A DNA stretch of 64,000 bases from Dehalococcoidia bacterium (lineage in GTDB: Bacteria; Chloroflexota; Dehalococcoidia; Lucifugimonadales; Australimonadaceae), in the NCBI GenBank assembly GCA_034422795.1, contig DAOUJK010000022.1:134556-198555 (forward strand). Direction: 5' to 3'. Of this stretch, positions 5,782 through 63,350 are shown one piece after another. Position 1 is the first letter of the stretch. Every line of letters starts with the position of its first letter. The translations under genes and the position numbers were made by a program. The notes below the pieces were generated by a model. It made no database searches and was not told the DNA's origin. It saw nothing but the letters and a program-made list of their open reading frames with translations.

Positions 5782-7191
5782 ATGACGACACGAGATGCAG
5801 GCGTGGAAGAGTTGACCTCGGTATGGGCAAGGTTCGGCTCGGAGCTCACCTACGAGGACCTGCCCGACAGCGTCCGCCGCACGGTCCGCTCGATCACGCT
5901 GGACACGCTCGCCACCTCCATCGCCGCCAACACCCTCGGCATCGGCATCCCGCAGCTGCTTGCGTGGGCACGGAAGGCCGGTGGCGCGGAGGAAGCGTCG
6001 CTCATCGGCCAGCCGGACAAGCTGCCCGCCGCCGCCGCCGCGATGCTGAACGGCGGCATGGCGCACGCGCTGAACTTCGATGACACCACCGCCGTAGGCT
6101 CCGGCCACCTCGGCCCGGTGACGCTGCCGACCGCGATGGCCGCGGCCGAACTGCTGGGCGGCGCCTCCGGTCGGGAGTTCATGACCGCGCTCGCAGCCGG
6201 GATGGAGCTGATGTCGCGCATCGGCATCGCCATCACGGCCAAAGCGGGCGCGTTCACTGAGTCCCGGCCCCAGCCGACGCAGATGCCGGGCTGCCTCGCT
6301 TCCGCGATGAGCGCGTCGCGCATGCTCGGCTTCTCGCCGCTGGAGACGCACAGCGCGCTCGGGCTCGCATTCATGCAGGCGTCCGGCGGGCGGCAGCCGG
6401 TGCTGGAAGGGCGTCCGGCGAAGGCCATCTACGCCGCGTTCTCCTGCCAGGCCGGGATGCAGAGCGCGCTGCTGGCGCGCGAGGGTCTGCTGGGCGACTG
6501 CGATGCGTTCGAGGGCGACGCGGGCTTCTTCCCCACCTACTACGGCGGCGTATTCGACCGCCCCGCGATGAGCGACGGCCTCGGCGAGGAGTGGCGTCTG
6601 CTGAACGTGGGGATCAAGCCGTGGCCCACCACCGGCGTTGCGCACGTGTTCATCGAGGCAGCCGCGGACCTGCGGGCGACGCGTGTGCCCGACCCGTCGG
6701 CGGTGACGCACGTGCTGCTGCGCGGCGAACCGCACATCCGCACGTTCTGCGAGCCGCTGCAGACGCGTCGCAACCCGCAGGCGCCGGTCGAGGCGGAGGA
6801 CTCGATCATCTTCGCGACGGCCCGCGCGCTCACCACCGGCAGCGTGACGCTGGCCGACCTCCAACCCACGCCGCAGGGACTGTTCGAGGAGGCCGCCTTG
6901 CGCATCGCCAACGTCACCGATTACGAGGTGGACGAATCGCTCGGCAAGTCAGGAGTTGTGGAGGTGACGCTGGCCAGCGGCGAAACGCTCTCTGAGAGGG
7001 TCGACGCTCCGAGAGGCCACCGCGACAACCCGCTCACGGACGAGCAGCGGCACCGGAAGTTCCGCGAGTGCGCGGTCCACGCCGGGACCCCGCTCAGCGA
7101 GGCTACGATAAGCGAGGTCATCGACATGACGGAGCGCCTGGACGACGCGGCGGACGTGACAGACCTTCTCCGCCTGCTGCGGGGCGGGTGA
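5782..7191 (+). CDS. MmgE/PrpD family protein (2-methylcitrate dehydratase-like)
   Basis: 'YEDLPDSVRRTVRSITLDTLATSIAA' and 'AMLNGGMAHALNFDDT' are typical of the family. ATG at 5782 follows GGAAGGAG. Confidence 0.8.
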   Translation: MTTRDAGVEELTSVWARFGSELTYEDLPDSVRRTVRSITLDTLATSIAANTLGIGIPQLLAWARKAGGAEEASLIGQPDKLPAAAAAMLNGGMAHALNFDDTTAVGSGHLGPVTLPTAMAAAELLGGASGREFMTALAAGMELMSRIGIAITAKAGAFTESRPQPTQMPGCLASAMSASRMLGFSPLETHSALGLAFMQASGGRQPVLEGRPAKAIYAAFSCQAGMQSALLAREGLLGDCDAFEGDAGFFPTYYGGVFDRPAMSDGLGEEWRLLNVGIKPWPTTGVAHVFIEAAADLRATRVPDPSAVTHVLLRGEPHIRTFCEPLQTRRNPQAPVEAEDSIIFATARALTTGSVTLADLQPTPQGLFEEAALRIANVTDYEVDESLGKSGVVEVTLASGETLSERVDAPRGHRDNPLTDEQRHRKFRECAVHAGTPLSEATISEVIDMTERLDDAADVTDLLRLLRGG

Positions 7192-8596: not shown

Positions 8597-8819
8597 ACAC
8601 TCTCTTAACGTTCGTGTAACCGGGACGCAACACCCTGCCGGTAGCATGGGTGTTGAAGCGAACACCGGCACGGACATGGGTGGCTCCGCCCTCGATACGC
8701 GAAGGAGCGACGGATAAGAGGTGTGCCGGAAACGCTGGCAAGAGGAATGAAGGGCGGGGAGACCCGCCTTCTTCCTTTTTTTGCGGCTCTTGCACACCTT
8801 GGCGGTGTGCGGCGTGGTG

Positions 8820-9030
8820 TGGGTGTCTGGCCCCCTCTCCTGAGGGAGAGGGCTGGGGTGAGGGCCCTCCGGGGTGGGGCCTGGGCTATCCCCCACCTCG
8901 CCCTCTGGGAGAGAGCCTGCCCTGAGCCTGCCGAACGGGTCGCCACGTAGTGGCGGGTGAGGGCTCTCGGGGCGTCTGAGCCCCTCGCCCTACAGGGGGA
9001 GAGGGACAGGGAGAGGGTACTCCCGGGCGG
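8820..9030. repeat. Two copies of repeat family C
   Basis: 'ccctctcctgagggagagggctggggtgagggccc' (~8831-8868) and 'gcccctcgccctacagggggagagggacagggagaggg' (~8978-9020). The ORFs predicted here (GEGWGEG...) are artefacts of the repeat. Confidence 0.75.
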
Positions 9031-9046: not shown

Positions 9047-10543
9047 CTAGCCGGCCCCGTAGACGGCCGTGTCCGGGTGGAACGAGAACCACCCGTGCCA
9101 GAACGAGGTTATCGTCGGTATGCGCGCCAGCGTCTCCGTGCCGTCCAACCGGGTCAGCGCGTTCTCGCCGACACTCCACTCGCCGCCCTCTGCGTCCCGC
9201 AACCCGTCCCCGTCCTCCGCGAACGTGCGCCCGTCCCGTTCGTAGACCCTGCCGGTGCCCCACGTGCTCGATCCCATGACGACGATCCCCTGTCCGCCCA
9301 CCACGTCGTTGATGACGGGCTCCCCGGCGAACGCGGAGACCGGGTACGCCTTGTAGTCGCCGTTGATGCCCACGCCGATGACCGTCTCCTTGGCGTGCAG
9401 CGCCTCGTCCCGGTTGAAGACCGGGAACATCGTCCTGGGCGATGCGAAGTAGTCGTAGTAGATGGCGTGCGGCTCCCACTCGTGGGCGTACTGGGTCGGC
9501 GAGTAGACGCCGGTCTCGATGTCGAGGACGGTCGTGTCCGGGTGCTCGGCGAGCCACTCCTCCCATGTCGTCAGCACGGACGGGAAGAAGTCGAGCTTGA
9601 TGCCGCTGGACGCCAGCGGGCCGACGACGGGCTCGCCCGTGAACTGGTTCCATATCGAGTTCGTCGTGCGGTCGTACATCAGCTTGTTGCTCTGGTAGAG
9701 CATGCCGGACGTGCCGAAGGTGGTGGGCTCCCCGTCTATCTTTGCGGAATACACGATCCCGCTGAAGCAGAGCGTTCAGTAGGCGAGCGCTATCGGCTCG
9801 CCTCCCAACACGTCGTTCGCCATCTCGTGCGGGTTCATGATGCGCAGCGGGTAGGCGCGGTGCTCGCCGTTGATGGAGACGCCGAAGACGCGGTCCCGCG
9901 GGTCCAGGTAGTCCGCCTCCTCCGGGGTGAGCGTGGGTGCGAACTGCAGGTCCGGGATGCCGTCCGTGGGCACGCCGCCCCAGACGGCTTCCGTGAGGTC
10001 GATGCGCTCCGAGCCCGGCGCGGAAGTGAAGAATGCCGCCATGCGCGGGTCGATGATCCCGAGGATGTTCACCTTCCAGTCGAGGTAGCCGTCCGGGGGA
10101 GGGAACTCGCCCCTGCGGGGGCCGAGCCACTCCATCGCCGCGTTCCACGCAGGCTGGTTGAGCCAGAAGTCCTGACCGGTGAGGCTCAACAGGGCCTGCC
10201 GGTACTCCTCGTCCAGTACGGGCCCTCCGCCGTACCGCATGATCTCGACGATGATGGGCACCTGGGAGGTGTCGTTCGCCGCAACGGCGTCGGCGAGGGC
10301 GCGTCGCGTTTCGTCGAGCGTCTGGTCGATGTCGCTGAAGATGCCCCACATCGTGTCGTTGGGGTCATAGTCGCCATCCGGCGCGGAGGTTGGAACGGGA
10401 GTGCCCGCCGGAGCCGGCGTAGCCGTGGGGACCGGGGTGGGCGCGGGAGTCGCCGTCGGGGGCTCGGGCGTGTACGCAGTGGAGGTACAGCCCGCCACGA
10501 CGATGGCAGCGGCGAGCAGGATCGTGAGGGAGATTCGTGACAT
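9047..10543 (-). CDS. DUF3179-family lipoprotein interrupted by one in-frame TGA (codon 256): selenocysteine candidate or pseudogene
   Basis: ORFs 9776-10543 and 9047-9754 share one frame and are separated only by the TGA at 9778-9776. The N-terminus has a lipobox signal 'LLAAAIVVAGC' and a PT-rich linker. Read-through gives '...NDVLGGEPIALAY[TGA]TLCFSGIVYSAKIDGEPTTFGTSGMLYQSNKLMYDRTTNSIWNQ', a contiguous DUF3179-like core. Confidence 0.7.
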
Positions 10544-10664
10544 AGCGCCCTGAGTTCAGTATACGCCCTGCTCGTGGGCATTCGATGTGTCCTTGAAGGA
10601 GGTCGTCCGGTCCCTTCCCTCCTGATGAGACCTTCGCGTAACTGTGTGAGGCGCCACTGGGAGG

Positions 10665-10730
10665 GGTGGTGGTGTCTGGTTCCCTCTCCTGAGGGAGAGG
10701 GTTAGGGTGAGGGCCCCCGGTGGGGTGGAT
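10665..10730. repeat. Repeat family C copy
   Basis: 'tctggttccctctcctgagggagagggttagggtgagggcccccgg' is nearly identical to the 8831-8868 copy. Confidence 0.75.
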
Positions 10731-10830
10731 GGGTCACACAAGGTCTCTTGATGAGGGAAGGTCAGGATGGGGGTGAGCGGCCTATAGGCGCCCCCCACCC
10801 ATGCCGGGCCGCTTTTGCGATAATGCCCCC

Positions 10831-11823
10831 ATGACGACGGTTGGAGACTTGGGAGAGACGGCGCTGATCGAACGCATCACCGAGCGCGTGCGCCGGGCCA
10901 GCCCACTGCAGACGATGGGCGGACGGATCATCACCGGCATCGGGGACGACGCCGCCGTGTGGCGCGTCGGAGGGGTGCAGGCTGCCACGACCGACACCAT
11001 GGTGGAGGGAGTCCACTTCCGAACGTCGACCGCGTCCTGGGCAGACGTGGGCTGGAAGGCCTGGGTCTCCAACGTGAGCGACATCACCGCGATGGGAGGC
11101 GTGCCGGTGGCCGGCCTGGTCACGCTTGGTCTGCCCGCTACCCTGAACGTGAGCGACGTCGATGGCTTGTATGACGGCATGCTGGAAGCGTGCGCCTCGT
11201 ACGGGACCGAGCTGATGGGCGGCGACATCGTCGGCTCGCCTGTTCCGTTCGTCACCGTGGCCATGACCGGCGTCTGCAGCGCCACGCCGCTCACGCGCTC
11301 GGCGGCGCAGTCCGGCGACGCGCTCGCGGTGACCGGCCCCCTCGGAGGCTCGCGCGGCGGGCTCCTGCTGCTGGAGGACGGCGCGCCGCTGGACACCCCC
11401 GCGCGGCAGGCGCTGGCGCTGGCGCACCGCAGGCCCAGGGCGCGGACGGACGCTGCCGCCGTGCTCAAGCGCCACGGCGTGCGCTGCGCCATGGACATCT
11501 CCGACGGGCTCGCCGCCGACCTCCCGAAGCTCGCGAAGGCATCCGGGGTCGCCGTGCAGCTCGATGCGGACCAGGTCCCCGTGGCGGACGCGCTCCGGAG
11601 CGAGTTCCGCGCGGAGGCGATGCGGATGGCGCTGAGCGGCGGCGAGGACTACGAGCTGCTCTTCGCAGGCCCGTCCGACATCGTCACAGCCGCCGTTGCC
11701 GAGCTCCGCGGGAGCGCGGCCATCGGGACGATCATGGACGGCGCGCCGGGCAGGGTCGCGTATGTCGCCGGACGAGGCGAGCCGCTCTCGTTCAGCGCTG
11801 AAGGTTGGGAGCATCTGCGATGA
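10831..11823 (+). CDS. thiL: Thiamine-monophosphate kinase
   Basis: 'GETALIERI', 'IGDDAAV', 'ATTDTMVEGVHF' and 'GGDIVGSP' indicate an AIR-synthase-like fold. ATG at 10831 is preferred (10801 is possible). Confidence 0.88.
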   Translation: MTTVGDLGETALIERITERVRRASPLQTMGGRIITGIGDDAAVWRVGGVQAATTDTMVEGVHFRTSTASWADVGWKAWVSNVSDITAMGGVPVAGLVTLGLPATLNVSDVDGLYDGMLEACASYGTELMGGDIVGSPVPFVTVAMTGVCSATPLTRSAAQSGDALAVTGPLGGSRGGLLLLEDGAPLDTPARQALALAHRRPRARTDAAAVLKRHGVRCAMDISDGLAADLPKLAKASGVAVQLDADQVPVADALRSEFRAEAMRMALSGGEDYELLFAGPSDIVTAAVAELRGSAAIGTIMDGAPGRVAYVAGRGEPLSFSAEGWEHLR

Positions 11824-13059: not shown

Positions 13060-13516
13060 CAAGGTCCCCGCTCATCCTGCAGACCCCCCGCTCATCCTGA
13101 GCTTGTCGAAGGGTCATGTTGAGCCTGTCGAAACATCTCGCGCCTTCCCCCGTCGTTCCCGCGTTCAACTGTCCACTTCAACCGGCGACTCTCACGAGTG
13201 CACACAGGGCGCATTCCACTCATTGAACGGTTGATCGGCAAGGCCGTGGCCTGCTTCCTCGTTCTTCCGTTCAACTGGAGCACAGATGAGGGGCGTGCAA
13301 CGCCGACCCATAGACCCTGTTTATGGCTGGGCCCCGAGCTATAGACGCGGTCTATGGCTGCTGCACGTACGACGCTCATGCAACCAGCGTACGCGGTGAG
13401 GGGACCATGGCGTAAGGGGCCGGTGTCAGGAATACGTCATTCCCGCGCAGGCGGGAATCCAGCAGCGCGAACAGGGGTACGCAGCCACTCCGTACTCCTG
13501 GCCGAGGCCACCAGCT
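13060..13516. repeat. Non-coding repeat cluster, left flank of the helicase islet
   Basis: Family A occurs three times (13068-13140), family E 'catgcaaccagcgtacgcggtgaggggaccatggcgtaaggggccggtgtcagg' at 13377-13430, and the family B hairpin at 13436-13462. There is also a 9-bp inverted repeat ccatagacc/ggtctatgg (~13309-13358). No credible ORF. Confidence 0.75.
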
Positions 13517-16500: not shown

Positions 16501-18625
16501 GCAATTTCGCGTCTTCCAGCCATGCCACTGCCGTGCGCACCCGCGTATCGTCAGTTGTTCTATCGCGCTCGAATTCGTGGTCTTCGTCCCCAATGAGTAT
16601 CTCCCCCGGCGTGGCCACCACTTCGCCGTCCGAGCGGTTCCTCTTGTTCAGGTTGCGCAGCGCTTTCAGGACGCCGTGTATCTCTTGTCGTGTGAGGCGC
16701 GAACGGGCTGACAGCCCGAACTGGCGCTCCACGTCGTCCATCGTGTACAGCAGCACGCAGCGCGCTGCCTGCTGGTCACGACCGGCCCTGCCCGCTTCCT
16801 GCAGGTAGTTCTCCAGGGAGCCGGGGATGTCTGCGTGAATCACGAGGCGGATGTCCGGCTTATCGATGCCCATGCCGAAGGCATTGGTGGCGGCGATGAC
16901 GCGGAGGCGGCCCTCGATGAAACTCTCTTGGACGTTTTTCTTGGTCTCCGGCGGCAACTCCCCGTGAAAGTAGTCCGCTTCCATGCCCTTGTCCTGAAGG
17001 AACTCTGCGACTTCCCTCGTCTGCCGCCGCGTTGCGCAGTAGACGATCGCTCCGCCGGTTTCATGTGCTGGCAGGTCGGACTCGATGAACTGGTGGATGT
17101 GTTCGAATTTCTCGCTGGCGCTTGTCCGTACTACCACGAAGTCGAGGTTGGCACGCTCAGTGCCACCGTTGAAAACCTCGAGCGTGATTCCGAGTTCTTT
17201 CTGAAAGTAGTCAACAATATCCGCCTCGACGTCAGGCTTGGCAGTTGCGGTCAGACACAGCACCGGCGGCACAGTCTCGTTTCCGGCTCGCTCGCGGATG
17301 AACCGCCCGACGTAGCGGTAGTCCGGCCGGAAGTCGTGCCCCCACTTGGAGAGGCAGTGCGCCTCGTCCAGCACCCAAGCGCCTATCTCCCTTTGCGCCA
17401 GAACGCGGCGGACGGCGACGCCGCGCAGCTGCTCAGGTGAAATGATGAGGAGACCGGCGTCTCCCAACCGCACACGGTCGAGAGCGTCGGCTCGCTCAGG
17501 CATGGACAAGAGGCTGTTGATAGTGACGCAGGAATCGATGCCCCGTTTCTCCAAGCCCGCCACCTGATCGCCCATGAGCGCCACCAGCGGTGAGATGATT
17601 ACCGTCAGCGCGCCGGTCTTGTCGTAGCGGGACAGCGCTGGAACCTGATAGCAGAGCGATTTCCCCGCGCCGGTCGGCAGGATCGCCAGTGTGTGCTCCC
17701 CCGCCATCGCAGCCTCTACGACGGAGTGTTGTATGGAACGTCCGGCTTTGTCCGCCGGTTTCGATCGGAAATCGCTGAAGCCGAACCAGCGGGCGAGTTC
17801 CTTGCGGGCGTCGTGCCGCTCAGCGCACCACAAGCAGCCAGCGTCGGTGCAGGGCGCATCCCGCAACCGGCGCACTAGTTGGCCTGCTTCGGGGAACTGG
17901 TACCGCACCCAGGGAGGCATAATCGAATTGCCTCCTGATACGGACAGCCAAGCCAGCGCGTAGGCGAGCGCCCAACCCTGTTCGTTAGGACGCGCCGTGA
18001 CCTCGCGTGCCTGTGTCCGGCAGGAGTTCCCTTCCAGTTGCGCTTGTATAACGTCGCGCGCCTCGGCATCTGATGGCCGTGGCAAGCCCCGCAGTGATGC
18101 GAAGACCTTGTCGAACCCCGCGCCGTACTCTGCCGTAGTGAGCCAGTGCCAAGCGGTCAGAAGATTGGGTGGCGCGTCGCGAAATGCTGTCAACTGGTTC
18201 TCGAACACCTGCAGCGTTAGTCTCGCATCCAGTTCGGGGTCGTTGCGGCGTCCCCGTTTGAGTTGCCCATCCTGATAGTGCTTGACCAGGTGGTGATACG
18301 GGTTGCGAGGGAAAGCCAAGGGATTGAGCCTGAGGGTATCGACTGCGGGCTGTCCCAGCAGCCGGAGGCTTGGATCCGCAGTGCGCAGGTGAATCAGATC
18401 GAAAGCGATCAGGTTGTGACCCAGCAGGAAATCCGCCCCATCGGCAAAACGGTCCAGTCTGGCGAACGCATCAGCCCATGAGTGGCCGGCCCCTGAGAAG
18501 GAGAAGGAACGATTGGTGTCCGAGCGCACTGCGGCGAAGGCGCGGATGCGGCTGCCGTCCCTCAGGACTTCGAGGTCCAACGAGAGGCAACGGAACGGGA
18601 GCAGGCTGACGTTGTCGGACGCCAT
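13517..18625 (-). CDS. 1,702-aa multidomain protein: DEDD 3'-5' exonuclease + RecQ-family SF2 helicase + UvrD/PcrA-family SF1 helicase + unassigned C-terminal domain
   Basis: Exonuclease motifs are 'LSLDLEV', 'LLGHNLIAFDL' and 'NDPELDARL' (nt ~18191-18598). RecQ motifs are 'LPTGAGKS', 'DEAH', 'ATNAFGMGIDKPDIRLVIH' and 'QEAGRAGRD' (nt ~16706-17788). UvrD motifs are 'AGPGSGKT', 'LVDEYQD', 'VGDDDQNIY', 'DNYRSS', 'TAHRAKGLEFD' and 'YVAMTRA' (nt ~13961-15373). GAGAGGA lies before the ATG. The gene is visibly AT-richer than its neighbours. Confidence 0.85.
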   Translation of the reverse strand: MASDNVSLLPFRCLSLDLEVLRDGSRIRAFAAVRSDTNRSFSFSGAGHSWADAFARLDRFADGADFLLGHNLIAFDLIHLRTADPSLRLLGQPAVDTLRLNPLAFPRNPYHHLVKHYQDGQLKRGRRNDPELDARLTLQVFENQLTAFRDAPPNLLTAWHWLTTAEYGAGFDKVFASLRGLPRPSDAEARDVIQAQLEGNSCRTQAREVTARPNEQGWALAYALAWLSVSGGNSIMPPWVRYQFPEAGQLVRRLRDAPCTDAGCLWCAERHDARKELARWFGFSDFRSKPADKAGRSIQHSVVEAAMAGEHTLAILPTGAGKSLCYQVPALSRYDKTGALTVIISPLVALMGDQVAGLEKRGIDSCVTINSLLSMPERADALDRVRLGDAGLLIISPEQLRGVAVRRVLAQREIGAWVLDEAHCLSKWGHDFRPDYRYVGRFIRERAGNETVPPVLCLTATAKPDVEADIVDYFQKELGITLEVFNGGTERANLDFVVVRTSASEKFEHIHQFIESDLPAHETGGAIVYCATRRQTREVAEFLQDKGMEADYFHGELPPETKKNVQESFIEGRLRVIAATNAFGMGIDKPDIRLVIHADIPGSLENYLQEAGRAGRDQQAARCVLLYTMDDVERQFGLSARSRLTRQEIHGVLKALRNLNKRNRSDGEVVATPGEILIGDEDHEFERDRTTDDTRVRTAVAWLEDAKLLTREENRVQMFPSSLRVRSLQEASARLAKASIGGTGRRQLLKIAATLFEADPDEGISTDELMSASGLTPEGVRSALHDLERLGIAANDTVLTAFVHEKVKRSSRQRFDEAAELERATIDLLRETAPDMGISETTTLHLRLASQRLKDDGYKKAPPERLRRIVRSIAADGRGEGGGGGSLGLRGVNRDAIQVTLQREWGLLEKTAELRRAAAKRLLDHLLACLPAESRGTDRLSKTTVGDLLKAITSDMTLMQEVREPSKLVDRALLWLHEQEVVRLNKGLAVFRPAMTIRLKQERRGFARTDFEPLNLHYKEQTLQIHVMAEYAMRGLGAIADAVQMTMEYFSLRQQDFLRRWLPERDKDLSRQTTPESWQAIVESLNNPVQRSIVADEREQANVLVLAGPGSGKTRVLVHRIAYLVRAMRENPHSILALAYNRHAAVDIRRRLAELIGDDARGVVVLTCHALAMSLAGASFTGRANDLDDAEFKKILKEAVSLLRGEGLPSEEVDEQRTRLLAGFRWILVDEYQDIGPDEYALISALAGRTLSEEDDKLSLFAVGDDDQNIYTFKGASVRFIRQFEKDYAAKPVFLTDNYRSSSHIIATANAVIEPATQRMKSGHPIRISQVRKKEPPGGVWAQRDAVAQGRVQTLPAGDSSISQAQAVVAELQRLSNLTQDWSWASCAVIAREWSYLDPVRSLCEIEGIPVQMGNEDFSGTWRLRETQALLHWVRERDSRLITSVELNDWLETQPPGSWNELLLEAVGEYALETGGAETPVAHFIEWLAEWVREVRRRQRGLLLTTAHRAKGLEFDHVAVLDGGWERVERRDADSSRRLYYVAMTRARQTLTLARFPGAHPFQDALPDSPAVLRRDEPLSLLAPALELARTYRRLSLRDVDLGFAGRKRPGDHIHYAIASLAPGDPLTVRVKSHPWELMDSAGAVVGRLAHRFEPDAGMRCIAASVLAIATWNREISDSEYQGGVQCEAWEVVVPELVFEPE

Positions 18626-18639
18626 ACTACAATCCTCTC

Positions 18640-19390
18640 AAGTAGTTCCGCGTCGGAGTTGAGGTAACTTCTCACCGATACGGTCGCCCTAGATTAGCAG
18701 CCGTATCGACCACCGGCAGCAAGTCATTGTAGCCCCCCAACCCCGTGACACGTGCCCCTTTCGCGGTCGCGGCAGGGGCGCGTACGCTGGTAGATGACGG
18801 CGGAGCACCGCTCCGGCGGACGGCCCGTCGTCGGTGGACCTGCCCCGGTGCGGGGTGCCGGAGCGCGCCAAGCGCGTGCAGGAGTGGAATGGCCCACAAT
18901 GGCTCACTTTGGCGCACTTTTCGCGATCCCCCCGTGCGGTCCACGCCTGCGTTGGGGGAACCCTCACCCGCCGCTGCACGGCACCCTCTCCCAAGGGGCG
19001 AGGGGTACAAGGTGGCGCGGGAAGGACAACTGAGGACACGGGGCCACGGGAAGCACATCGGGTTGCACCCGGCATGGTCCTTGGACAAGCTCAGGATGAG
19101 CGGGGTGGGGTCGCAGGAGTGGAATGAGAAGAAATAGGACACAATCCTCAGCGATCTGCAGCGGGCCACGCCTGCCAGTCCCATCCGCAGGAGTGAAGCG
19201 GCATGCTCATTCCGGGCTATCCGCGCTCGGAAGCGAGCGTCAGCCGCTCATCTGTGCGCGTCAGCCGCTCATTCGTGGAGCACCCATGGCCGAGCCGTGG
19301 TCCATTCTGGACCCCCGCCGCGCGAAAACGACAGGCGCGCGGGTGTGATAGGCTACGGAATCCGCCGCCGGGTATGGCGGCACGAAGGGA
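18640..19390. repeat. Non-coding repeat cluster, right flank of the helicase islet
   Basis: Family E in inverted orientation (18745-18790), family C (18956-19015), family A in inverted orientation (19077-19103), 'gcaggagtggaatg' twice, and 'cgtcagccgctcat' twice (~19239-19272). The ORFs predicted here are repeat artefacts. Confidence 0.7.
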
Positions 19391-20747: not shown

Positions 20748-21932
20748 ATGGACGGACGCTTCAGCGCAACGGAACGCGGGAAACGGGTCGTCGTCGCCAT
20801 GTCGGGCGGCGTCGATTCGTCGGTCGCGGCGTACCTGCTGCACCGGCAGGGCTACGACGTCGTCGGCGTCACGATGCGGCTCTGGTCCGCGGACGAGGAC
20901 GACGTATCGCCGGACCACCAGGGCTGCTGCTCGATCCAGGACATCGAGGACGCCCGCCGCGTCTGCCAGGTCCTCGGCATCCCGCACTACGTCGTGGACG
21001 CGAGGCGCGAGTTCCGCGAGCACGTCGTCGCCTACTTCGTCAGCGAGTACGAACGCGGGCGCACGCCGCACCCCTGCATCGCCTGCAACGACCGCATCAA
21101 GTTCGACTTCCTGATGCGGCGCGCCGCCATGATGGACGCTGACTACGTCGCCACGGGCCACTACGCCCGCATCGAGCGCGACGCCTCTGACGGCGCGTGG
21201 GCGCTCCGCCAGGGCGTCGACGCGGCGAAGGACCAGTCCTACGTGCTGTTCGGGCTGGGGCAGGAGCAGTTGGGGCGCGTGCTGCTGCCGGTGGGCGGCT
21301 ACGCCAAGGACGAGATCCGGTCGCTGGCGAGCGAGGCCGGCTTCCATCTCGCTGACAAGGCCGACAGCCAGGAGATCTGCTTCATCCCCAGCGGCGACTA
21401 CCGCCGGTTCATGCGCAGGGAGTCGGCGCCGGAGCCGGGCGAGGTCGTGGACGCTTCCGGACGGGTCGTAGGCGAGCACGCCGGCATCGAGTTCTACACC
21501 GTCGGCCAGCGGCGCGGCATCGGCGTCCACCCTTCGGCGCTCGGCCTGCCGGACGGCGAGAAGCTCTTCGTGACGGCGGTCGACCCCGAGACGCGCCGCA
21601 TCACCGTCGGCGGGAGCGGCGACCTGCTCCGGCGCGGCGTGCGCGTGGGGGACGTCCGCTACGTCGCGGACACACGTCCCGCGGACGCCTGCCGCGTGAC
21701 GGCGAAGATACGCTACAACGGGCGATCCGCTCCCGCCGTCCTCCACCACGACGGCGACGGCGCGGTGCTATGGTTCGACGAGCCGCAGCGCGCCGTCACG
21801 CCGGGCCAGGCCGCCGTGTTCTACGACGGCGACCGCGTGCTCGGCGGCGGCTACATCGAGGGTCCCGCGGAAGCAGGGCTGCCGTCCACGAGCGGAGCGA
21901 ACGGCCCGGCCGGAGTACCGGCTGCCGTCTGA
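20748..21932 (+). CDS. mnmA: tRNA 2-thiouridine(34) synthase MnmA
   Basis: PP-loop 'VVVAMSGGVDSSVAA', 'HPCIACN', 'ATGHYAR' and 'KDQSYVL'. A ~25-aa low-complexity tail follows the usual 'GGGYIE' end. Confidence 0.92.
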   Translation: MDGRFSATERGKRVVVAMSGGVDSSVAAYLLHRQGYDVVGVTMRLWSADEDDVSPDHQGCCSIQDIEDARRVCQVLGIPHYVVDARREFREHVVAYFVSEYERGRTPHPCIACNDRIKFDFLMRRAAMMDADYVATGHYARIERDASDGAWALRQGVDAAKDQSYVLFGLGQEQLGRVLLPVGGYAKDEIRSLASEAGFHLADKADSQEICFIPSGDYRRFMRRESAPEPGEVVDASGRVVGEHAGIEFYTVGQRRGIGVHPSALGLPDGEKLFVTAVDPETRRITVGGSGDLLRRGVRVGDVRYVADTRPADACRVTAKIRYNGRSAPAVLHHDGDGAVLWFDEPQRAVTPGQAAVFYDGDRVLGGGYIEGPAEAGLPSTSGANGPAGVPAAV

Positions 21933-32309: not shown

Positions 32310-33290
32310 TCAGCCCCCCAGCGCCGCGCTCAGCGCAGACGCGTCGACCCACTCCCGCGCCATCGCTCCGGCGCGCTCCGCCTTCGCAGGGTGGTGGACG
32401 CTCACCGCGTCACCCAGCGACTCCAGCGCCGCTGCCGTGTCTTGCGTGTTCGAGCTCACCGCGATGAGCGGCACGTCCAGTTCATCCGCGCGTTGGTATA
32501 CGTACTGCGACGGGGTCTCGCACCCCGTGAGGAAGAGTGCATTCAGGGGAAAGTTGAGCGCGCTCATCTGGATGTCTATCCGCCCGCCACGTACGACTAC
32601 GGCCTGATTCGGCAGCCGCCCGAAGTAGTTGCCGCCCCACTCCGTGATGAGCCCACCGATGAGGAAATGCTCAATCAGTTCGCTGCCGCCGTCCTCGCAC
32701 GTAAAGTATGTGCCGTACAGATGGTCTGTTACCTGCTGGACCGTCGGAGCAAGCAACAGACGCTCCTCGGGCAGGACGCCGAGCACCGGAAGCCCAGCTT
32801 CCGCAAGCTCGACAGCGAGCCGCGCGGATGCATCGTGCTCTGCATAACGCGTGCGCTTGTTCACGACGCAGCCTGCCAGCGAATCGCCGTAAGCATCTCG
32901 CCACGCTCCGCAGGCCGCCGCGCCCAGAGCGCGTTCGTACTCGAATGCGCCTATCACTACCGCGCCAATGCCCCGCGCCAGTTGTGCCCCAGCTTCACCC
33001 TCCCCCAAGACCGGGCCCTCTACCACGACCACCTCGGCCTCCGCGGCAGCGCCCTGTACAACCTGAACAGCCTGTGCCACCTGCTCCGGCGAGGGTGATC
33101 CTTCGACTACGACCGTCGCCGCAGAGCCACCGAGCGAGGCGAGGAACGCGGGGTCGGCATCGCCGGGGGGCGAGAGCGGCTTCATGAGCGTGACGCGCTT
33201 CCCCTGCGACCGCAGCAGCGACGCGAGCCCGCAGGCGACCGTCGTCGCGCCCGCTCCCGACCGCGCACCTGCAATCTGGACCACACTCAT
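32310..33290 (-). CDS. Phosphotransacetylase-N-terminal-like protein (P-loop CobQ/MinD-like domain + DRTGG domain)
   Basis: 'MSVVQIAGARSGAGATTVACGLASLL' and a C-terminal 'AVVVRGGRIDIQMSALNFPLNALFLTG...LIAVSSNT'. ATG at 33290 is preferred; the 70 upstream codons of the track ORF were ignored. Confidence 0.7.
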   Translation of the reverse strand: MSVVQIAGARSGAGATTVACGLASLLRSQGKRVTLMKPLSPPGDADPAFLASLGGSAATVVVEGSPSPEQVAQAVQVVQGAAAEAEVVVVEGPVLGEGEAGAQLARGIGAVVIGAFEYERALGAAACGAWRDAYGDSLAGCVVNKRTRYAEHDASARLAVELAEAGLPVLGVLPEERLLLAPTVQQVTDHLYGTYFTCEDGGSELIEHFLIGGLITEWGGNYFGRLPNQAVVVRGGRIDIQMSALNFPLNALFLTGCETPSQYVYQRADELDVPLIAVSSNTQDTAAALESLGDAVSVHHPAKAERAGAMAREWVDASALSAALGG

Positions 33291-33569
33291 CCTGGCTTCT
33301 GTCCTCTCGCGAGTTCCAGCCGAGTATACCAGCGCCCAACACCGCTGGTGGCCTGTCGGGCACCGTCCAAGGGTCTGGGGACAATACTCGTGCATGAAAT
33401 CGGGCGCTGTGGCTGTGTCCCGCGTGACGACGTGCGTCTCATCGCCATCGTGCGTGGATACGCGCGCAGCAGCATGGCATACATAGGCTTGATACTGCAA
33501 AGTTAATATGCTAACACAGTACTATCAACTCATCCTCCGTTCGGGTAGACGCAACATCCGCCCGCTGCC

Positions 33570-36323
33570 GTGTGCGACTTGCTATTGCGCCTTCCAGCAT
33601 CGCTCTTCACGTTATGGGTCGGCCTGGCCGTCCTGGTATGCGCATGCGATGCGGCATCCGCATCTCCTTTCGAGCTGGACGCCAGAGCCAAACCGACACC
33701 CACCATTACCCCAACCCCTGCTCCCACATCCACCCCCGCAGTTACGCTCACACCGACGCCAACGCCTTCCCCGTCACCTTCTCCAACTCAACCACCAACA
33801 CCCACGCTGTCTCCAACCCAATCCCCCACTCCTTCGCCGTCACCGTCTCCAACCCCAACGCCCGCGCCTTCTCCCATCCCCACTTCAACCCCCCGTCCAA
33901 CGCCCACGCCTACAGCCACGGTCACGCCCATACCGCCGACCCCGTCCCTTACCCCAACGCCTACGTCCGCGCCTCCGCCCACACCCACGGCATCCCCTAC
34001 TCCGTCTCCGGTTCCTCCTTCGGTGCGGGAAGCGCGTCCTCCACGCCCTCCTACTCCCACCCCTACCCTTTCACCCATACCTACCCCTACCCCCACTCCT
34101 ACGCAGACACCCCAGGCCCCGCTTCCGGGAATGATTCGCGATTCCATCGGCGCGGGCAGCCTACACTCATGCGCCCTCCGCGCCGACGGTTCCCCCGTCT
34201 GCTGGGGGAACGACGAAAAGGGACAATCATCGCCACCCCCTGACCTCACGCTGATCACACTCGATCTGGGCGGAGCCTACTCCTGTGGCCTTGAGACCGA
34301 CGGTTCGCCCGTGTGCTGGGGTGAAGACGACAATGGTCAGGCGTCTGCGCCAACAACGGGAACATTCGCCTCTATCAGCGCAGGTTACCTCCACGCGTGC
34401 GCGCTGGACCTCGAGGGAAAGCCCATATGCTGGGGTGACAACGACAAGCAGCAATCGTCGCCGCCCGACGAGAAGTTGTTCACCGCGATAAGTTCCGGCG
34501 AAGAGCACACGTGCGCCCTGGAAGCAGATGGCACGCCGGTCTGTTGGGGAAGCAACGCCGCCGGACAATCGTCGCCCCCAGCAGACACAACGTTCTCCTC
34601 GGTAAGCGCAGGTTACCTGCATGCCTGTGGAATCAGGTCCAATGGGTCCGCTGTCTGCTGGGGGCGGAACGACCTGGGGCAGGCGTCGGCGCCGCAGAAC
34701 GAAGCATTCCAAGCAATCTCCGGGGGGCGGAGGCACACCTGTGCGCTCACGACGGACGGAGCGCCTGTCTGCTGGGGCTCCGACACGCACGGTCAGTCGA
34801 CGCCACCAGGAGGAGCGGTGTTCTCAGCGATAAGCGCGGGAGAGAGCCACACCTGCGCCATCACACAAGATGGCACACCCGTCTGCTGGGGCGACACGTC
34901 CGACGGAAGGTCCTCACCGCCCTCTCCGGGAACAAGCCCAACTCCGACGCCGACACCTACTCCATCCCTCACCCCCACTCCTACGCCTACCCCTACCCCC
35001 ACTCCTACGCTCACGCCGACCCCGACTGCCACTTCATCCCCCACACCTGCTCAGACGCCTACCCCTACCCCCACTCCTACACCCACACCAACCCCGACTG
35101 CCACTCCATCTCCAACGCCTACCCAGACGCCTACCCCTACCCCCACTCCTACACTCGCACCAACCCCGACCGCCACTCCATCTCCTACGCCTACCCAGAC
35201 GCCTACCCCTACCTCCACCCCTACGCTTACACCAACCCCGACTGCCACCCCATCTCCTACGCCTACTCAGACGCCTACCCCGATTGCGACACGAACGCCC
35301 TCTGCAACCGTGAGCATATCCTCGGATACCGTTGGTGCAGGCGCTTTTCACTCGTGCTCACTCAAGCCGGACGGCACACCCCTTTGTTGGGGAGACGACC
35401 ACAACGGCCAAGCGTCTCCCCCCTCGGACGTAACGTTGACCGCTATCAGCGTCGGTTCTGGACACACGTGCGGGCTGACGGCGGATGGCTCAGCCGTCTG
35501 TTGGGGAGAAGGGGAGTACGGTCGAACCTCCCCTCCCTCCGACAAGACGTTCACCGCTATCACCGCCGGCTACCTTCATACTTGCGCGTTGGAGAGCGAC
35601 GGTTCCCCTATCTGCTGGGGGGATAACGAGAAGAGTCAGTCGTCACCCCCCGAGAACAGTACGTTCACAGCGATAACCGCCGGGGAGACGCACACATGCG
35701 GCCTGCAGGCGAACGGAACCGCCGTCTGCTGGGGAGGCGTGGACAACGACCACGGCCAGGTCTCGCCACCGCCGGACACTACGTTCACAGCAATCAGCGC
35801 GGGCTACCTCCATACCTGTGGGATCAAGTCGGACGGCTCCATCGCCTGCTGGGGCCTGAACAACAAGAACCAGGTGTCCGACGTTCCGACGGGTCAGACC
35901 TTCATGTCGCTCTCATGCGGACGGCGGCACTCCTGTGCACTGACGTCCAACGGCACGCCTGTCTGTTGGGGTGAGGACGACGAAGGCCAGTCCACACCTC
36001 CTGCCGATGCGGAGTTCGCAGCGATCGGCGCAGGAGAGAAACACTCGTGTGCGTTGCAAGCGGATGGCACGCCTGTCTGCTGGGGAAAAGACGAGCATGG
36101 AAGACTGTCGCCGCCGACGGATATGGGTTCTATGAATCCCACACCCAGATACCTACTACTCGCCTTCCTGGGCCTGATGGCAGCTTCTCTCCCGAACAGA
36201 TCGATGACCAGAGCGCGCAAGAAGCTAGCGTCTTACGCGAGGAGGCGCGCACCCGGGCGAGACAATGTCCCTGGTCAGTATGCCGAAGGTCCCTTCCCGG
36301 TCAGTGCAACGGGGACAAGCTGA
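33570..36323 (+). CDS. Membrane-anchored surface protein with two 7-bladed RCC1-like beta-propellers separated by Pro/Thr linkers
   Basis: Hydrophobic N-terminus '[15 protein letters not shown]'. A PT linker spans aa ~40-185. There are 7 repeats of ~38 aa of the form 'G..H[ST]C[AG]L..DG.P.CWG.....GQ..PP' (aa ~190-450). A second PT linker spans aa ~451-585, followed by 7 more repeats. The C-terminus has a hydrophobic helix '[14 protein letters not shown]' and a basic tail. Confidence 0.8.
35025..35294 (+). repeat. Coding tandem repeat, 72-nt unit x ~3.75 ([24 protein letters not shown])
   Basis: The 24-aa units start at aa 486, 510, 534 and 558 of the RCC1-like protein. The copies are near-identical at DNA level. 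Confidence 0.8.
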
Positions 36324-52169: not shown

Positions 52170-52281
52170 GCGGACAGTCTACCGCGTCGCGGGTCTCGAC
52201 GCGTGAAGAGCACCACCCACGCTTGAAAGTTGACTTGAGGTAAGACTTTGTACTACCATGTTTCTGCTTCTAACATCCATT

Positions 52282-52525
52282 CCGCTGGGAAGGGAAGTAG
52301 TAGGGGGCAAGCGCATCCCAGAGAGCCGGTCGTTCTGGTGCGAGACCGGCGATGGACAAGCCCCCCTGAACTCGTCCCCGAGCGGCTGGCCTGAACGGAA
52401 CAAGTAGGGCCAGCGGAGCGCGCCGTTACCGCGCAGGTAAAGCTGCCCCGGCCATTCATGGCGCGGGGAAGTAGGGTGGTACCGCGGGTTAACGGCCCGT
52501 CCCTTCATGGGGCGGGTCTTTTTTT
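52282..52525 (+). promoter_or_regulatory. T-box riboswitch leader, specifier CUC (Leu), controlling the ilv-leu operon
   Basis: Stem I carries an 'agta' S-turn, the AG-bulge 'agagag' and the distal loop 'ggtgcga'. The specifier loop reads 'gaa CUC g' (CTC at 52371-52373). The conserved T-box 'gtagggtggtaccgcgg' is at 52471-52487. A terminator hairpin and U-run follow. Confidence 0.8.
52493..52525 (+). terminator. Intrinsic terminator of the T-box leader
   Basis: An 8-bp stem cccgtccc/ggggcggg (52496-52503 and 52509-52516) with loop ttcat, followed by 'tcttttttt'. Confidence 0.8.
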
Positions 52526-52581: not shown

Positions 52582-54282
52582 TTGCACCTGACTGGCGCAC
52601 AGATGGTCTGCGAAAGCCTGGCGCGGGAAGGAACGGACATCATGTTCGGCCTTCCCGGCGGCGCGATACTGCCGCTCTACCAGACGCTGCCGGAGTACCC
52701 GCAGTTGCGGCATATCCTCGTGCGGCACGAGCAGAACGCCGGCCATGCGGCGGACGGCTACGCGCGCGCATCCGGCAAGGTGGGCGTCGCCGTCGCGACC
52801 TCGGGGCCGGGGGCGACGAACCTCGTGACGCCGCTCGCCACCGCGATGATGGACTCCGTCCCCATCGTGGCGATCACGGGGCAGGTGCCCCGCGCCGCCA
52901 TCGGGCGCGACGCGTTCCAGGAGACCGACACCACCGGCATCACGCTGCCCATCACCAAGCACAACTACCTGGTCATGGACACGGCGGACATCCCGCGCAT
53001 CATGAGCGAGGCCTTCCACATCGCGCGAACGGGCCGCCCCGGTCCAGTGCTCATCGACCTGCCGCGAGACGTGCTCACGGAGAGCGCGGACTTCGACTAC
53101 CCGGAACACGTCGACCTCCCGTCCTACAAGCCGACGATGGAGGGCCACGGGCAGATGATCAAGCGCGCCGCGCAACTCATCGAGGAGTCGCGCCGGCCGT
53201 TGCTGCTCGTGGGGCACGGAGCGATCATCTCCGGGGCGTTCGCGGAGGTGCGGGAGATAGCGGAAAAGGCCCAGATACCGGTCATCACAACGCTTCTGGG
53301 CATCGGCAGCTTCTCCGGCGAGCACGTCCTGAGCATGGGTATGCCCGGGATGCACGGCCAGGCGTACAACAACTGGGCCATAGACCGCGCGGACCTCATC
53401 ATCGGCGTCGGGATGCGGTTCGACGACCGGGTAACCGGCAGGCTGAGCGCCTTCGCACCCAACGCGAAGGTCATCCACATCGACATCGATCCTGCCGAGG
53501 TCGGCAAGAACGTGCGGGTCACGGTGCCCATCGTCGGCGACGCGAAGCGTGTACTGCATGCGCTCGCCAAGCAGGTGGAGCAGGTCTCCCGTCCCGAGTG
53601 GATCGCGGAACTGGAAGCGCTGCGCACTGACCACCCGCTGGGCGCCGGTCAGGGCACAGGGCTCCGTCCACAGCACGTCGTGCGCGAGCTGTGCGCGGTC
53701 ACGGACGGTCGCGCCATCGTGGTGACCGGAGTGGGGCAGCACCAGATGTGGGCGGCCCAGCACTACGTCTTCAAGGAGGCGGGGTCCTGGATCACGTCCG
53801 GCGGGCTGGGGACGATGGGCTTCGAGGTGCCCGCGGCGATGGGCGCAGCCTTTGCGCAGCCCAACCGGCAGGTGTGGAGCATAGCCGGGGACGGCGGCTT
53901 CCAGATGACGATGTCCGAGCTGGCGACCATCGTGGAGCACAACGTGCCGGTGAAGTTCGCCATCCTCAACAACAACAACCTCGGCCTCGTGCGGCAGTTG
54001 CAGGACCTGTTCTACGGCGGCTCGCGCGTGGCGTCCGGCTACACCGGCAACCCGGACTTCGTGAAGATGGCCGAGGCCTACGGCATCTGGGCGAAGCACG
54101 TGTCGGACGAGCCGCAGGTGCGCGCTGCGATAGAAGAGGCGGTGGCAGTGGATGGGCCCGCCATCATCGACTTCCACGTGGAACCGGAGGAGAACGTGTA
54201 CCCGCACGTTCCGGCGGGGGAGAGCGTGTTCGAGATGATCGAGTCGCCCGCGGGGCAGGAAGCGCTGTCATGGCTGACGTAA
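52582..54282 (+). CDS. ilvB: Acetolactate synthase (AHAS) large subunit
   Basis: 'GAQMVCESLAREGTDIMFGLPGG' and ThDP motif 'GGLGTMGFEVPAAMGA...GDGGFQM...NNNNLG'. The track start 52507 lies inside the terminator. The TTG at 52582 was chosen, but the start is uncertain (ATG 52603 is the alternative). Confidence 0.9.
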   Translation: MHLTGAQMVCESLAREGTDIMFGLPGGAILPLYQTLPEYPQLRHILVRHEQNAGHAADGYARASGKVGVAVATSGPGATNLVTPLATAMMDSVPIVAITGQVPRAAIGRDAFQETDTTGITLPITKHNYLVMDTADIPRIMSEAFHIARTGRPGPVLIDLPRDVLTESADFDYPEHVDLPSYKPTMEGHGQMIKRAAQLIEESRRPLLLVGHGAIISGAFAEVREIAEKAQIPVITTLLGIGSFSGEHVLSMGMPGMHGQAYNNWAIDRADLIIGVGMRFDDRVTGRLSAFAPNAKVIHIDIDPAEVGKNVRVTVPIVGDAKRVLHALAKQVEQVSRPEWIAELEALRTDHPLGAGQGTGLRPQHVVRELCAVTDGRAIVVTGVGQHQMWAAQHYVFKEAGSWITSGGLGTMGFEVPAAMGAAFAQPNRQVWSIAGDGGFQMTMSELATIVEHNVPVKFAILNNNNLGLVRQLQDLFYGGSRVASGYTGNPDFVKMAEAYGIWAKHVSDEPQVRAAIEEAVAVDGPAIIDFHVEPEENVYPHVPAGESVFEMIESPAGQEALSWLT

Positions 54283-57510: not shown

Positions 57511-57593
57511 TCAGGCTTGACGATGCTCAGGCTTGACGATGCTCAGGCCTGATAAGGCCCCCCCCCCCGCTCATCCTGAGCTTGTCGAAGGAC
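57511..57593. repeat. 16-nt direct repeats (x2.6) followed by a repeat family A copy
   Basis: 'tcaggcttgacgatgc' occurs at 57511 and 57527, with a partial copy at 57543. 'ccgctcatcctgagcttgtcgaaggac' is at 57567-57593. Confidence 0.75.
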
Positions 57594-57685: not shown

Positions 57686-58231
57686 ATGCGCACCGTAACC
57701 GTCAGCAGCAAGAACCAGGTCACCATACCCGTCGCCATCCTCAGGGAGGTGGGCATCAGCCCTGGCGACAGGTTGGCCGCCGCCGTCGTGGACGGCAACA
57801 TCGTGTTGATGAAGGAGCCGGAGAACTGGGTGCTGTATCTCCAGGGAAGCATGAGGGGGACCTACGGCGACACGAAGGAGAGCATCGACCGTTACGTCCA
57901 GCGCGAGCGCGACAGCTGGTACGAGCCGCCGTCCGAGCACGTCAGCGACTCGGACCCGCGCGAGTGGCGCAAGCGGTTCGAGGACCTCTATGCCACGGAC
58001 AGCGGCGTGCGGGCAGTCGCTGACACCCTCATGGACTGCCCGCACCACGTGGCTACTTTCCCTGACCTGGCGTGGCTCATCCCCGAGAATGGCCACCCCA
58101 CCGACCTGGCCCAGACGCTGGAGACGCTCACGTCCAGCCGCTGGGTGCGACGCATCCCGGCGCAGGACGAGGAGCCTGAGCGCTATCGCCTGGACAGCGA
58201 GGTCGCGGCGTCGCTCAAGGCCGGCTCCTGA
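57686..58231 (+). CDS. AbrB/SpoVT-MazE-type DNA-binding (antitoxin-like) domain protein with ~95-aa C-terminal extension
   Basis: 'VTVSSKNQVTIPVAILREVGISPGDRL' is a swapped-hairpin AbrB-type domain. 'SIDRYVQRERDSW' looks like a normal antitoxin end. The extra C-terminal region is unassigned. Confidence 0.65.
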   Translation: MRTVTVSSKNQVTIPVAILREVGISPGDRLAAAVVDGNIVLMKEPENWVLYLQGSMRGTYGDTKESIDRYVQRERDSWYEPPSEHVSDSDPREWRKRFEDLYATDSGVRAVADTLMDCPHHVATFPDLAWLIPENGHPTDLAQTLETLTSSRWVRRIPAQDEEPERYRLDSEVAASLKAGS

Positions 58232-63053: not shown

Positions 63054-63056
63054 CTC

Positions 63057-63350
63057 CCCGCTCATGGTGAGCCTGTCGAACCACCGCCCTTTACCGTCAT
63101 TCCAGCACCGGCTGGAATCCAGGGTGCGCGGGCAGCGCACGACGCGTCGCGAAGCGGACGCGCAAGCCCGTCGTTCCTGGGAGGCAGGAACCTCGCACCA
63201 CGTCCCGCTCATGGTGAGCCTGTCGAACCACCGCCCTTTACCGTCATTCCCGCACCGGCGGGAATCCAGAGTGCGCGGGCAGCGCACGACGCGTCGCGAA
63301 GCGGACGCGCAAGCCCGTCGTTCCTGCGCAGGCAGGAACCTCGCAGGGTG
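63057..63350. repeat. Tandem duplication (2 x 147 bp) of a composite multi-hairpin repeat
   Basis: The units start at 63057 and 63204. Each unit has a family A variant 'cccgctcatggtgagcctgtcgaacc', a family B-type hairpin, 'gtgcgcgggcagcgcac' and 'gttcctg...caggaac'. The copies differ by a compensatory pair in the B hairpin (ccAgc/gcTgg versus ccCgc/gcGgg). Confidence 0.85.

Follow-up and report, generated by a model that had tools for sequence, protein, structure and literature searches.

A minus-strand gene for a DUF3179 protein lies at positions 9047-10543 of a 64-kb stretch of DNA (64,000 nucleotides, hereafter the window) from the Dehalococcoidia contig DAOUJK010000022.1. The reading frame runs from an ATG at 10543 to a TAG at 9049-9047 and comprises 498 codons, the sole interruption being an in-frame TGA at 9778-9776. 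The initial annotation had described two open reading frames (ORFs) in one frame parted only by this TGA, and the arrangement was confirmed by translation and by a single domain match. The read-through protein gave one match to Pfam DUF3179 (PF11376), which bridged the TGA and covered profile positions 2-292 of 292 with an E value of 1.5e-75 and 254.8 bits, the gathering cut-off being 27. The two ORFs are accordingly the halves of a single domain rather than separate genes. Public gene calls on ENA scaffold ERZ23495130 scaffold_36 split the gene into fragments of 255 and 218 amino acids. Read as selenocysteine (Sec), the UGA at 9776-9778 (minus strand, codon 256) would give U256, the opening residue of a U-T-L-C motif, and the context of the site in the read-through product would be ...IALAY-U-TLCFSGIVYSAK. 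The TGC codon at 9767-9769 (minus strand) encodes Cys259, which from its conservation is the putative resolving or partner cysteine of the UxxC motif.

The N-terminal region (10487-10543, minus strand), as read from the sequence, contains a signal peptide with a lipobox, MSRISLTILLAAAIVVAG|C, and after it a linker rich in Pro and Thr. Homologue N-termini were equivalent ('...A(V/L)ACG/S'), and the N-terminus looks like that of a membrane-anchored extracytoplasmic lipoprotein. An AlphaFold2 (AF2) model was generated from a 24-sequence alignment with a predicted local distance difference test (pLDDT) score of 86.7 and a predicted template modelling (pTM) score of 0.82. Residues 1-54, comprising signal and linker, were disordered in the model. 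An N-terminal all-helical domain was predicted for residues 61-174 (10022-10363, minus strand), with helices at pLDDT >80; it was conserved in homologues, lay outside the Pfam DUF3179 model and gave no family match in Pfam. The DUF3179 domain, assigned from Pfam and the AF2 model, is beta-rich and spans residues 194-492 (9068-9964, minus strand). The DUF3179 region is a tandem duplication of residues ∼216-340 and 383-498 (27% identity, E 1e-13), and the U/CxxC motif lies in a ∼17-residue insertion present in the first copy only. NCBIfam contained no match or model for the family. No PDB relatives were located by sequence profile search, nor by Foldseek at E <= 0.001 using the AF2 model. A Rieske/NirD-type beta-domain fold was considered but not assigned; the hits were weak and local, with no Pfam backing at E up to 10, and the resemblance is treated as a lead only. 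The gene has divergent and convergent neighbours on its two sides, and no operon partner was seen to be conserved.

A search of ∼5.8 billion proteins returned >2,000 homologues, with a best identity of 52%. The initial annotation had placed the TGA at the first cysteine of a conserved CxxC motif and had asked for an alignment of homologues. In an alignment of 23 homologues the TGA column was occupied by a conserved Cys within 'AY-C-TLC-G', which bears out the position; the motif remembered in that annotation, YCPLC, did not hold, as this branch carries CTLC. Two homologues, P0102 and P0115, were without either cysteine of the motif.

Related loci were also located at the DNA level by scanning one genome per bacterial species. 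This yielded 77 loci, nearly all from Dehalococcoidia/SAR202 metagenome-assembled genomes (MAGs), several of which have sponge-derived bin names. At the 78 readable sites, window included, the homologous codon was TGA in 62, TGC or TGT in 15 and TGG in one. The 61 other TGA loci encode proteins ∼49-90% identical to that of the window and derive almost entirely from Dehalococcoidia/SAR202 species-representative genomes. The position of Cys259 was Cys in 59/59 distinct TGA forms and in 15/15 Cys forms, and was nearly invariant in the protein-homologue alignment. Relatives 86-90% identical were thus present at the DNA level, while the protein search topped out at 52%. Close relatives have apparently been split in the same way, and the protein search therefore returned no close full-length match; apparently, neither the present gene nor no fewer than 61 other loci, orthologous or paralogous, of public Dehalococcoidia/SAR202 genomes have been recovered as full-length proteins.

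A hairpin with the form of a bacterial selenocysteine insertion sequence (SECIS) core was found 3' of the TGA at 9744-9762 (minus strand). It consists of a 5' arm at 9762-9756 (GCGGGAU), a loop at 9755-9751 (CGUGU) and a 3' arm at 9750-9744 (AUUCCGC), and it encodes (S)GIVYS(A). From the UGA it is 13 nt to the start of the hairpin and 20 nt to that of the loop (spacer 9775-9756). Within the hairpin is a 15-nt core, GGR AUC GUG UAU UCC (GGRATCGTGTATTCC), 16 nt after the TGA, giving the signature TGA-N16-GGRATCGTGTATTCC. The core was unvaried in 58/59 distinct TGA forms, synonymous sites included. Codons +7 to +10 (ATC GTG TAT TCC) had ∼0 synonymous entropy across the 59 forms (TAT 58 : TAC 1); elsewhere in the gene Tyr favours TAC, and equally conserved flanking residues had an entropy of 1-1.7 bits. 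The equivalent residues of the 15 Cys forms were encoded by varying codons (GGC ATC GCN TAC AGC). The codons of the hairpin are fixed in the Sec forms and free in the Cys forms, and therefore the former read GIVYS and the latter GIAYS, a clear illustration of an in-coding SECIS constraining protein sequence.

Except for the TAC variant and a contig that is truncated, the core GGRATCGTGTATTCC occurred once per TGA locus at a fixed offset. It was present in 0/15 Cys loci and did not recur elsewhere in the window. This strict co-occurrence of core and TGA, together with its absence from the Cys forms, provides indirect support for a SECIS function. In some Dehalococcoidia genomes there are two distinct DUF3179 paralogues of the TGA type (L062 and L065 in OZ253584.1; L061 and L067 in CBDDDS01), and both paralogues of these genomes share one SECIS core.

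Pairing was assessed in an alignment of 61 sequences. The 7-bp stem was 94% paired in register, compared with 16-62% when the partner was slid by 1-3 columns, and RNAalifold independently yielded the same stem (6 bp). Two-sided changes that preserve pairing were observed in the outer pairs, with CG 42, UA 4 and GC 2 at columns 18-34 and CG 16 and GC 15 at columns 17-35. These compensatory changes at the base of the stem swap amino acids (Ser/Thr with Ala/Gly/Arg/Thr). The CGUGU loop and its spacing were unvaried, with no indels, in all 61 sequences. The element first proposed was longer (9740-9767, minus strand) and included a lower stem of CUU 9767-9765 and AAG 9742-9740. Its upper stem, CGUGU loop and 20-nt distance were retained in the present analysis; the lower stem, whose three pairs form in just 36-64% of the distinct sequences, was not conserved and is clade-specific at best. 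Retention of the hairpin in TGA-bearing orthologues, a check named beforehand, was found at 61 other loci in the form of synonymous invariance and compensatory changes.

The hairpin was compared with the bacterial SECIS consensus (the bSECISearch model of Zhang & Gladyshev, 2005) as summarised in a 2026 AEM review (PMC13188914, Fig. 2A). The consensus specifies an apical loop of 3-9 nt, and 5 nt (CGUGU) were found; an upper stem of 4-16 bp, and 6-7 bp were found; a G at loop position 1 or 2, usually followed by G/U, and the loop reads C-G-U-G-U, unvaried in 61/61; a distance from UGA to loop of 16-37 nt, and 20 nt were found; and a minimum free energy (MFE) of <= -7.5 kcal/mol, and -8.8 kcal/mol (28-nt element, folding with the upper stem only) and -11.7 kcal/mol (45 nt) were found. 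The likeness to bacterial SECIS geometry that had been proposed thus extends to all four published criteria, loop and stem length counting as one. As in the SECIS of Escherichia coli fdhF, the stem-loop is within the coding sequence just 3' of the UGA and has a small loop whose second position is G and whose third is U; unlike in the E. coli elements, the sequence of the hairpin is unrelated. With a size of 17-19 nt the hairpin is presumably close to the minimal functional upper stem-loop of fdhF. It has no counterpart of the bulged U of the fdhF stem.

The gene very probably encodes a full-length DUF3179 selenoprotein, a predicted extracytoplasmic lipoprotein, with the UGA recoded as Sec by means of a downstream bacterial SECIS. 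On meeting the UGA at 9778-9776, the ribosome would use the hairpin 13 nt downstream as a bacterial SECIS, with its 6-7 bp stem, CGUGU loop, G-U at loop positions 2-3 and loop placed 20 nt from the UGA. The product would bear U-T-L-C where relatives bear C-T-L-C. The position of the codon, the Cys/Sec pairing, the intact tail under selection and a hairpin that is conserved at the nucleotide level, covaries and goes strictly with TGA were all observed in the aligned loci. Binding of SelB and actual insertion of Sec would follow by analogy with the established bacterial mechanism and from the Sec machinery of close relatives. The proposal of a UxxC selenocysteine candidate made in the initial annotation is accordingly strengthened by the Cys column, the 61 other TGA loci and the conserved hairpin.

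DUF3179 has been listed as a selenoprotein family with the motif UxxC/T (Zhang et al., 2022, PMC9312934; 2026 AEM review, PMC13188914), with MBW1804167.1 and MDJ0986319.1 as published examples, and both reviews give credit to Zhang & Gladyshev (2007), who studied the symbiont metagenome of Olavius algarvensis (PMC9312934, PMC13188914). The gene described here agrees with that entry, the TGA being aligned with a conserved Cys and the motif being U-T-L-C. It shares with the catalogued DUF3179 selenoproteins the same Pfam domain and a Sec placed first in UxxC, as compared by the motif string 'UxxC/T' of the reviews only, and, apparently, a SECIS-like hairpin just past the UGA. It differs from the original examples, which were from deltaproteobacterial worm symbionts, in that the host belongs to SAR202/Dehalococcoidia (Chloroflexota). 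The gene is a new, mis-annotated SAR202 member of a catalogued selenoprotein family, and the mechanism proposed for it is the ordinary bacterial one, with no new mechanism involved. Selenoproteins and tRNA-Sec of Chloroflexi have been reported previously in the literature, and BSepDB (PMC13326102) has entries for Dehalococcoidia MAGs in which selenoprotein genes number 49 and 46. The gene adds a well-supported, predicted exported selenoprotein to a lineage already known as selenoprotein-rich, and the signature TGA-N16-GGRATCGTGTATTCC could serve to repair split gene calls.

Several observations weigh against recoding as Sec. Agreement with the MFE criterion is borderline without flanking bases: the bare 19-nt hairpin of the window falls just short at -7.3 kcal/mol (z = -2.3), and two further stem variants gave -7.7 kcal/mol. 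The element is a small one, and the folding energy of its 57-nt context was unremarkable (z = -0.67). The covariation score exceeded that of all 500 shuffles, a count that is not a probability and that overstates significance, the sequences being related and non-independent. A search of the window against Rfam gave no match at the gathering threshold and no SECIS-type match at a permissive one, a result that is uninformative as the coverage of bacterial SECIS elements in Rfam was unchecked. The sole permissive match near the hairpin was toga_FSE on the opposite strand (9716-9743), at chance level with an E value of 1.9. What places the hairpin above chance is not its folding energy but the way in which its nucleotides stay invariant or covary in 60 orthologues that bear the TGA. 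No selA, selB, selD or tRNA-Sec was located in the 64-kb window using Pfam on 20 large ORFs and a tRNA scan, the rest of the genome being unscanned. The scan located no tRNA genes of any kind in the window and no tRNA-Sec in 60 related loci. The window represents ∼2% of the genome, and the missing Sec genes therefore neither support nor refute a selenoprotein. Finally, locus L001 carries TGG (Trp) at the Sec codon (10571-10573; ENA ERZ25766727 ctg350188_2x_l; protein P0100) with the hairpin intact, and another residue could perhaps be tolerated at this position.

The absence of Sec machinery from the window and the TGG of L001, in a protein otherwise conserved, would also suit decoding of the UGA as an amino acid other than Sec, either by near-cognate read-through (Trp/Cys) or by local or genome-wide reassignment, with the hairpin acting as a read-through stimulator and not as a SelB site. 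We consider this very unlikely. P0100 retains the SECIS core as GGAATCGTGTATTCC, nests in a Sec clade and, at 52%, is the closest full-length protein that the database contains. Translation of a TGA as 'W' under genetic code 4 was ruled out for P0100, as a real TGG is present in the contig. The TGG may reflect a true replacement of Sec by Trp or, as the '2x' in the contig name suggests low coverage, a base error. TGA is the ordinary terminator of at least 10 Pfam-supported genes of the window, and ∼14 DUF3179 orthologues end in TGA; TGA is therefore not reassigned. The codon stands in place of the first Cys of CxxC, a classic Sec/Cys pair in a family catalogued as UxxC/T, and both the geometry of the hairpin and the G-U of its loop agree with the bSECIS model. 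A close relative also possesses the machinery: SAR202 bin16 (MPMJ00000000) has one copy each of SelA, SelB and SelD (Slaby et al., 2017, PMC5649159, Table S4), and the TGA locus from this bin (L007) encodes a protein 88% identical to that of the window.

Termination at the UGA, with two separate products and with the conservation of hairpin and 'GIVYS' arising from protein constraint or from a pause/re-initiation signal, is very improbable. A GTG at 9754 could re-start translation in the same frame, but the downstream half is without a signal peptide of its own, though it forms part of an exported lipoprotein, and one Pfam domain and one predicted beta-subdomain cross the stop. Since conserved amino acids are encoded within the hairpin, a degree of nucleotide conservation is to be expected in any case; synonymous sites are, however, frozen in the TGA forms only, the Cys forms using other codons (TAC, AGC), and the base of the stem has undergone compensatory changes that replace amino acids yet preserve pairing.

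The sequence 3' of the TGA was examined for signs of decay. Every complete TGA locus has 242-267 open codons after the TGA. The ratio of non-synonymous to synonymous substitution rates (dN/dS) of this tail had a median of 0.21 and a maximum of 0.37 (119 pairs from the 16 closest loci), with a dS of ∼0.4 in the tail; the 61 other TGA loci differ mutually at dS ∼0.3-0.5. The tail is under clear purifying selection. A recent nonsense mutation giving a pseudogene, or a sequencing or assembly error converting TGC/TGT to TGA, had been raised as alternatives and would fit the division of the gene in two by public gene callers, but both are excluded for practical purposes by the unbroken tail with its dN/dS of ∼0.21, by the same TGA at 61 other loci of distinct species and in a second near-identical assembly, and by the dedicated conserved hairpin downstream.

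The second assembly (ENA ERZ23495130 scaffold_36, 447 kb; loci L002/L080) is 99.84% identical to the window over 20.5 kb. The two sequences have 32 differences, 30 of which are in two patches (9719-9806 and 17360-17627) and 2 of which are isolated. The TGA and hairpin core are retained in scaffold_36 despite the differences within patch 9719-9806, which takes in the SECIS region. In the 63 nt after the TGA the scaffold_36 allele is identical to that of another species (L017). These patterns suggest strain-level recombination or a mixed-population consensus.

The history of the Sec codon was followed in a neighbour-joining tree of 76 loci, a sample biased towards relatives of the query. The Cys forms grouped in a single clade lying within a set of several Sec clades, and Sec was the state of the deepest branches. 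Within the sampled loci, the predicted Sec and its SECIS are retained over deep divergence.

Outside the cytoplasmic membrane, the UxxC motif is predicted to lie on an exposed insertion loop, where it would most plausibly form a redox-active selenenylsulfide or serve as a binding site for soft metals or chalcogens. The two-residue spacing of the Sec/Cys pair is like that of thioredoxin-fold selenoproteins and of DsbA-like and MerT/CopZ-like proteins, and the predicted extracytoplasmic location is like that of Dsb-type proteins. Unlike thiol/selenol oxidoreductases, the model is not thioredoxin-like and has a helical domain with two duplicated beta-subdomains. More speculatively, and with less than even likelihood in our estimation, DUF3179 may be an extracytoplasmic, lipid-anchored selenoenzyme of a fold without a solved relative, with Sec predominant and apparently ancestral in a deep SAR202/Dehalococcoidia radiation, many members of which are sponge-associated. 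Retention of Sec and of an invariant SECIS below 50% identity would then suggest that selenium is strongly required for catalysis of a surface redox or chalcogen/metal-handling reaction, one of importance to these abundant marine bacteria.

Further candidates for Sec-related features in the window were tried and rejected. An AIRS-domain gene at 10801-11823 was considered as SelD and was judged to be ThiL from its N-terminal sequence; this neighbour of the DUF3179 gene directly precedes TsaE and a gene of the TsaD family. In four further cases, two ORFs of one frame split by a single TGA were unrelated adjacent genes. These pairs were PrpD then a Rieske oxygenase (TGA 7189-7191), MnmA then RNase HII (21930-21932), a DRTGG-type gene then a GATase (32310-32312, minus strand) and an AbrB-like gene then LeuC (58229-58231). 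Adjacent same-frame genes with a single TGA between them could mislead screens that bridge TGA codons. In one Sec-type clade (L037, L047, L054, L058, L060) a tRNA-Ser(GGA), which is not a tRNA-Sec, was found just 3' of the DUF3179 gene, ∼100 nt past its stop and up to ∼270 nt in L058.

Repeats were also present in the window. A 69-nt GC-rich palindromic repeat (…CCCTCTCCTGAGGGAGAGGG…) flanks the DUF3179 gene in intergenic DNA at 8811-8879 and 10660-10728, with copies 81% identical, and looks like a REP/MITE-type element (repetitive extragenic palindrome or miniature inverted-repeat transposable element). A short intergenic repeat with an internal palindrome, 'CCGTCATTCCCGCGAAAGCGGGAATCC', was found at 770-802, 13434-13466, 63094-63126, 63241-63273 and 63315-63347. 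A second short intergenic repeat, 'CCCCGCTCATCCTGAGCTTGTCGAAGG', was found at 898-926, 13084-13112, 19077-19110 (inverted), 57563-57591, 63054-63082 and 63201-63229. Both families are spread over the window in both orientations.

A repetitive coding region at ∼33515-36200 (plus strand) contains Pro/Thr-rich linkers with a 12-18-nt period and a 114-nt (38-aa) unit, marked by 'DGxPVCWG', that recurs in 12 copies or more. The 38-aa unit resembles an RCC1-like repeat. An ORF within this region (34439-35623) had no Pfam match at 1e-5. The region extends over more than one frame, and a frameshift or assembly problem is possible.

A T-box leader was located at 52278-52507 (plus strand; Rfam RF00230, 102 bits). 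It is directly 5' of a branched-chain amino-acid cluster encoding an acetolactate synthase-type thiamine pyrophosphate (TPP) enzyme, ketol-acid reductoisomerase and LeuA, with LeuC further on. The frame of the acetolactate synthase-type TPP enzyme opens at 52441 and ends at 54282.

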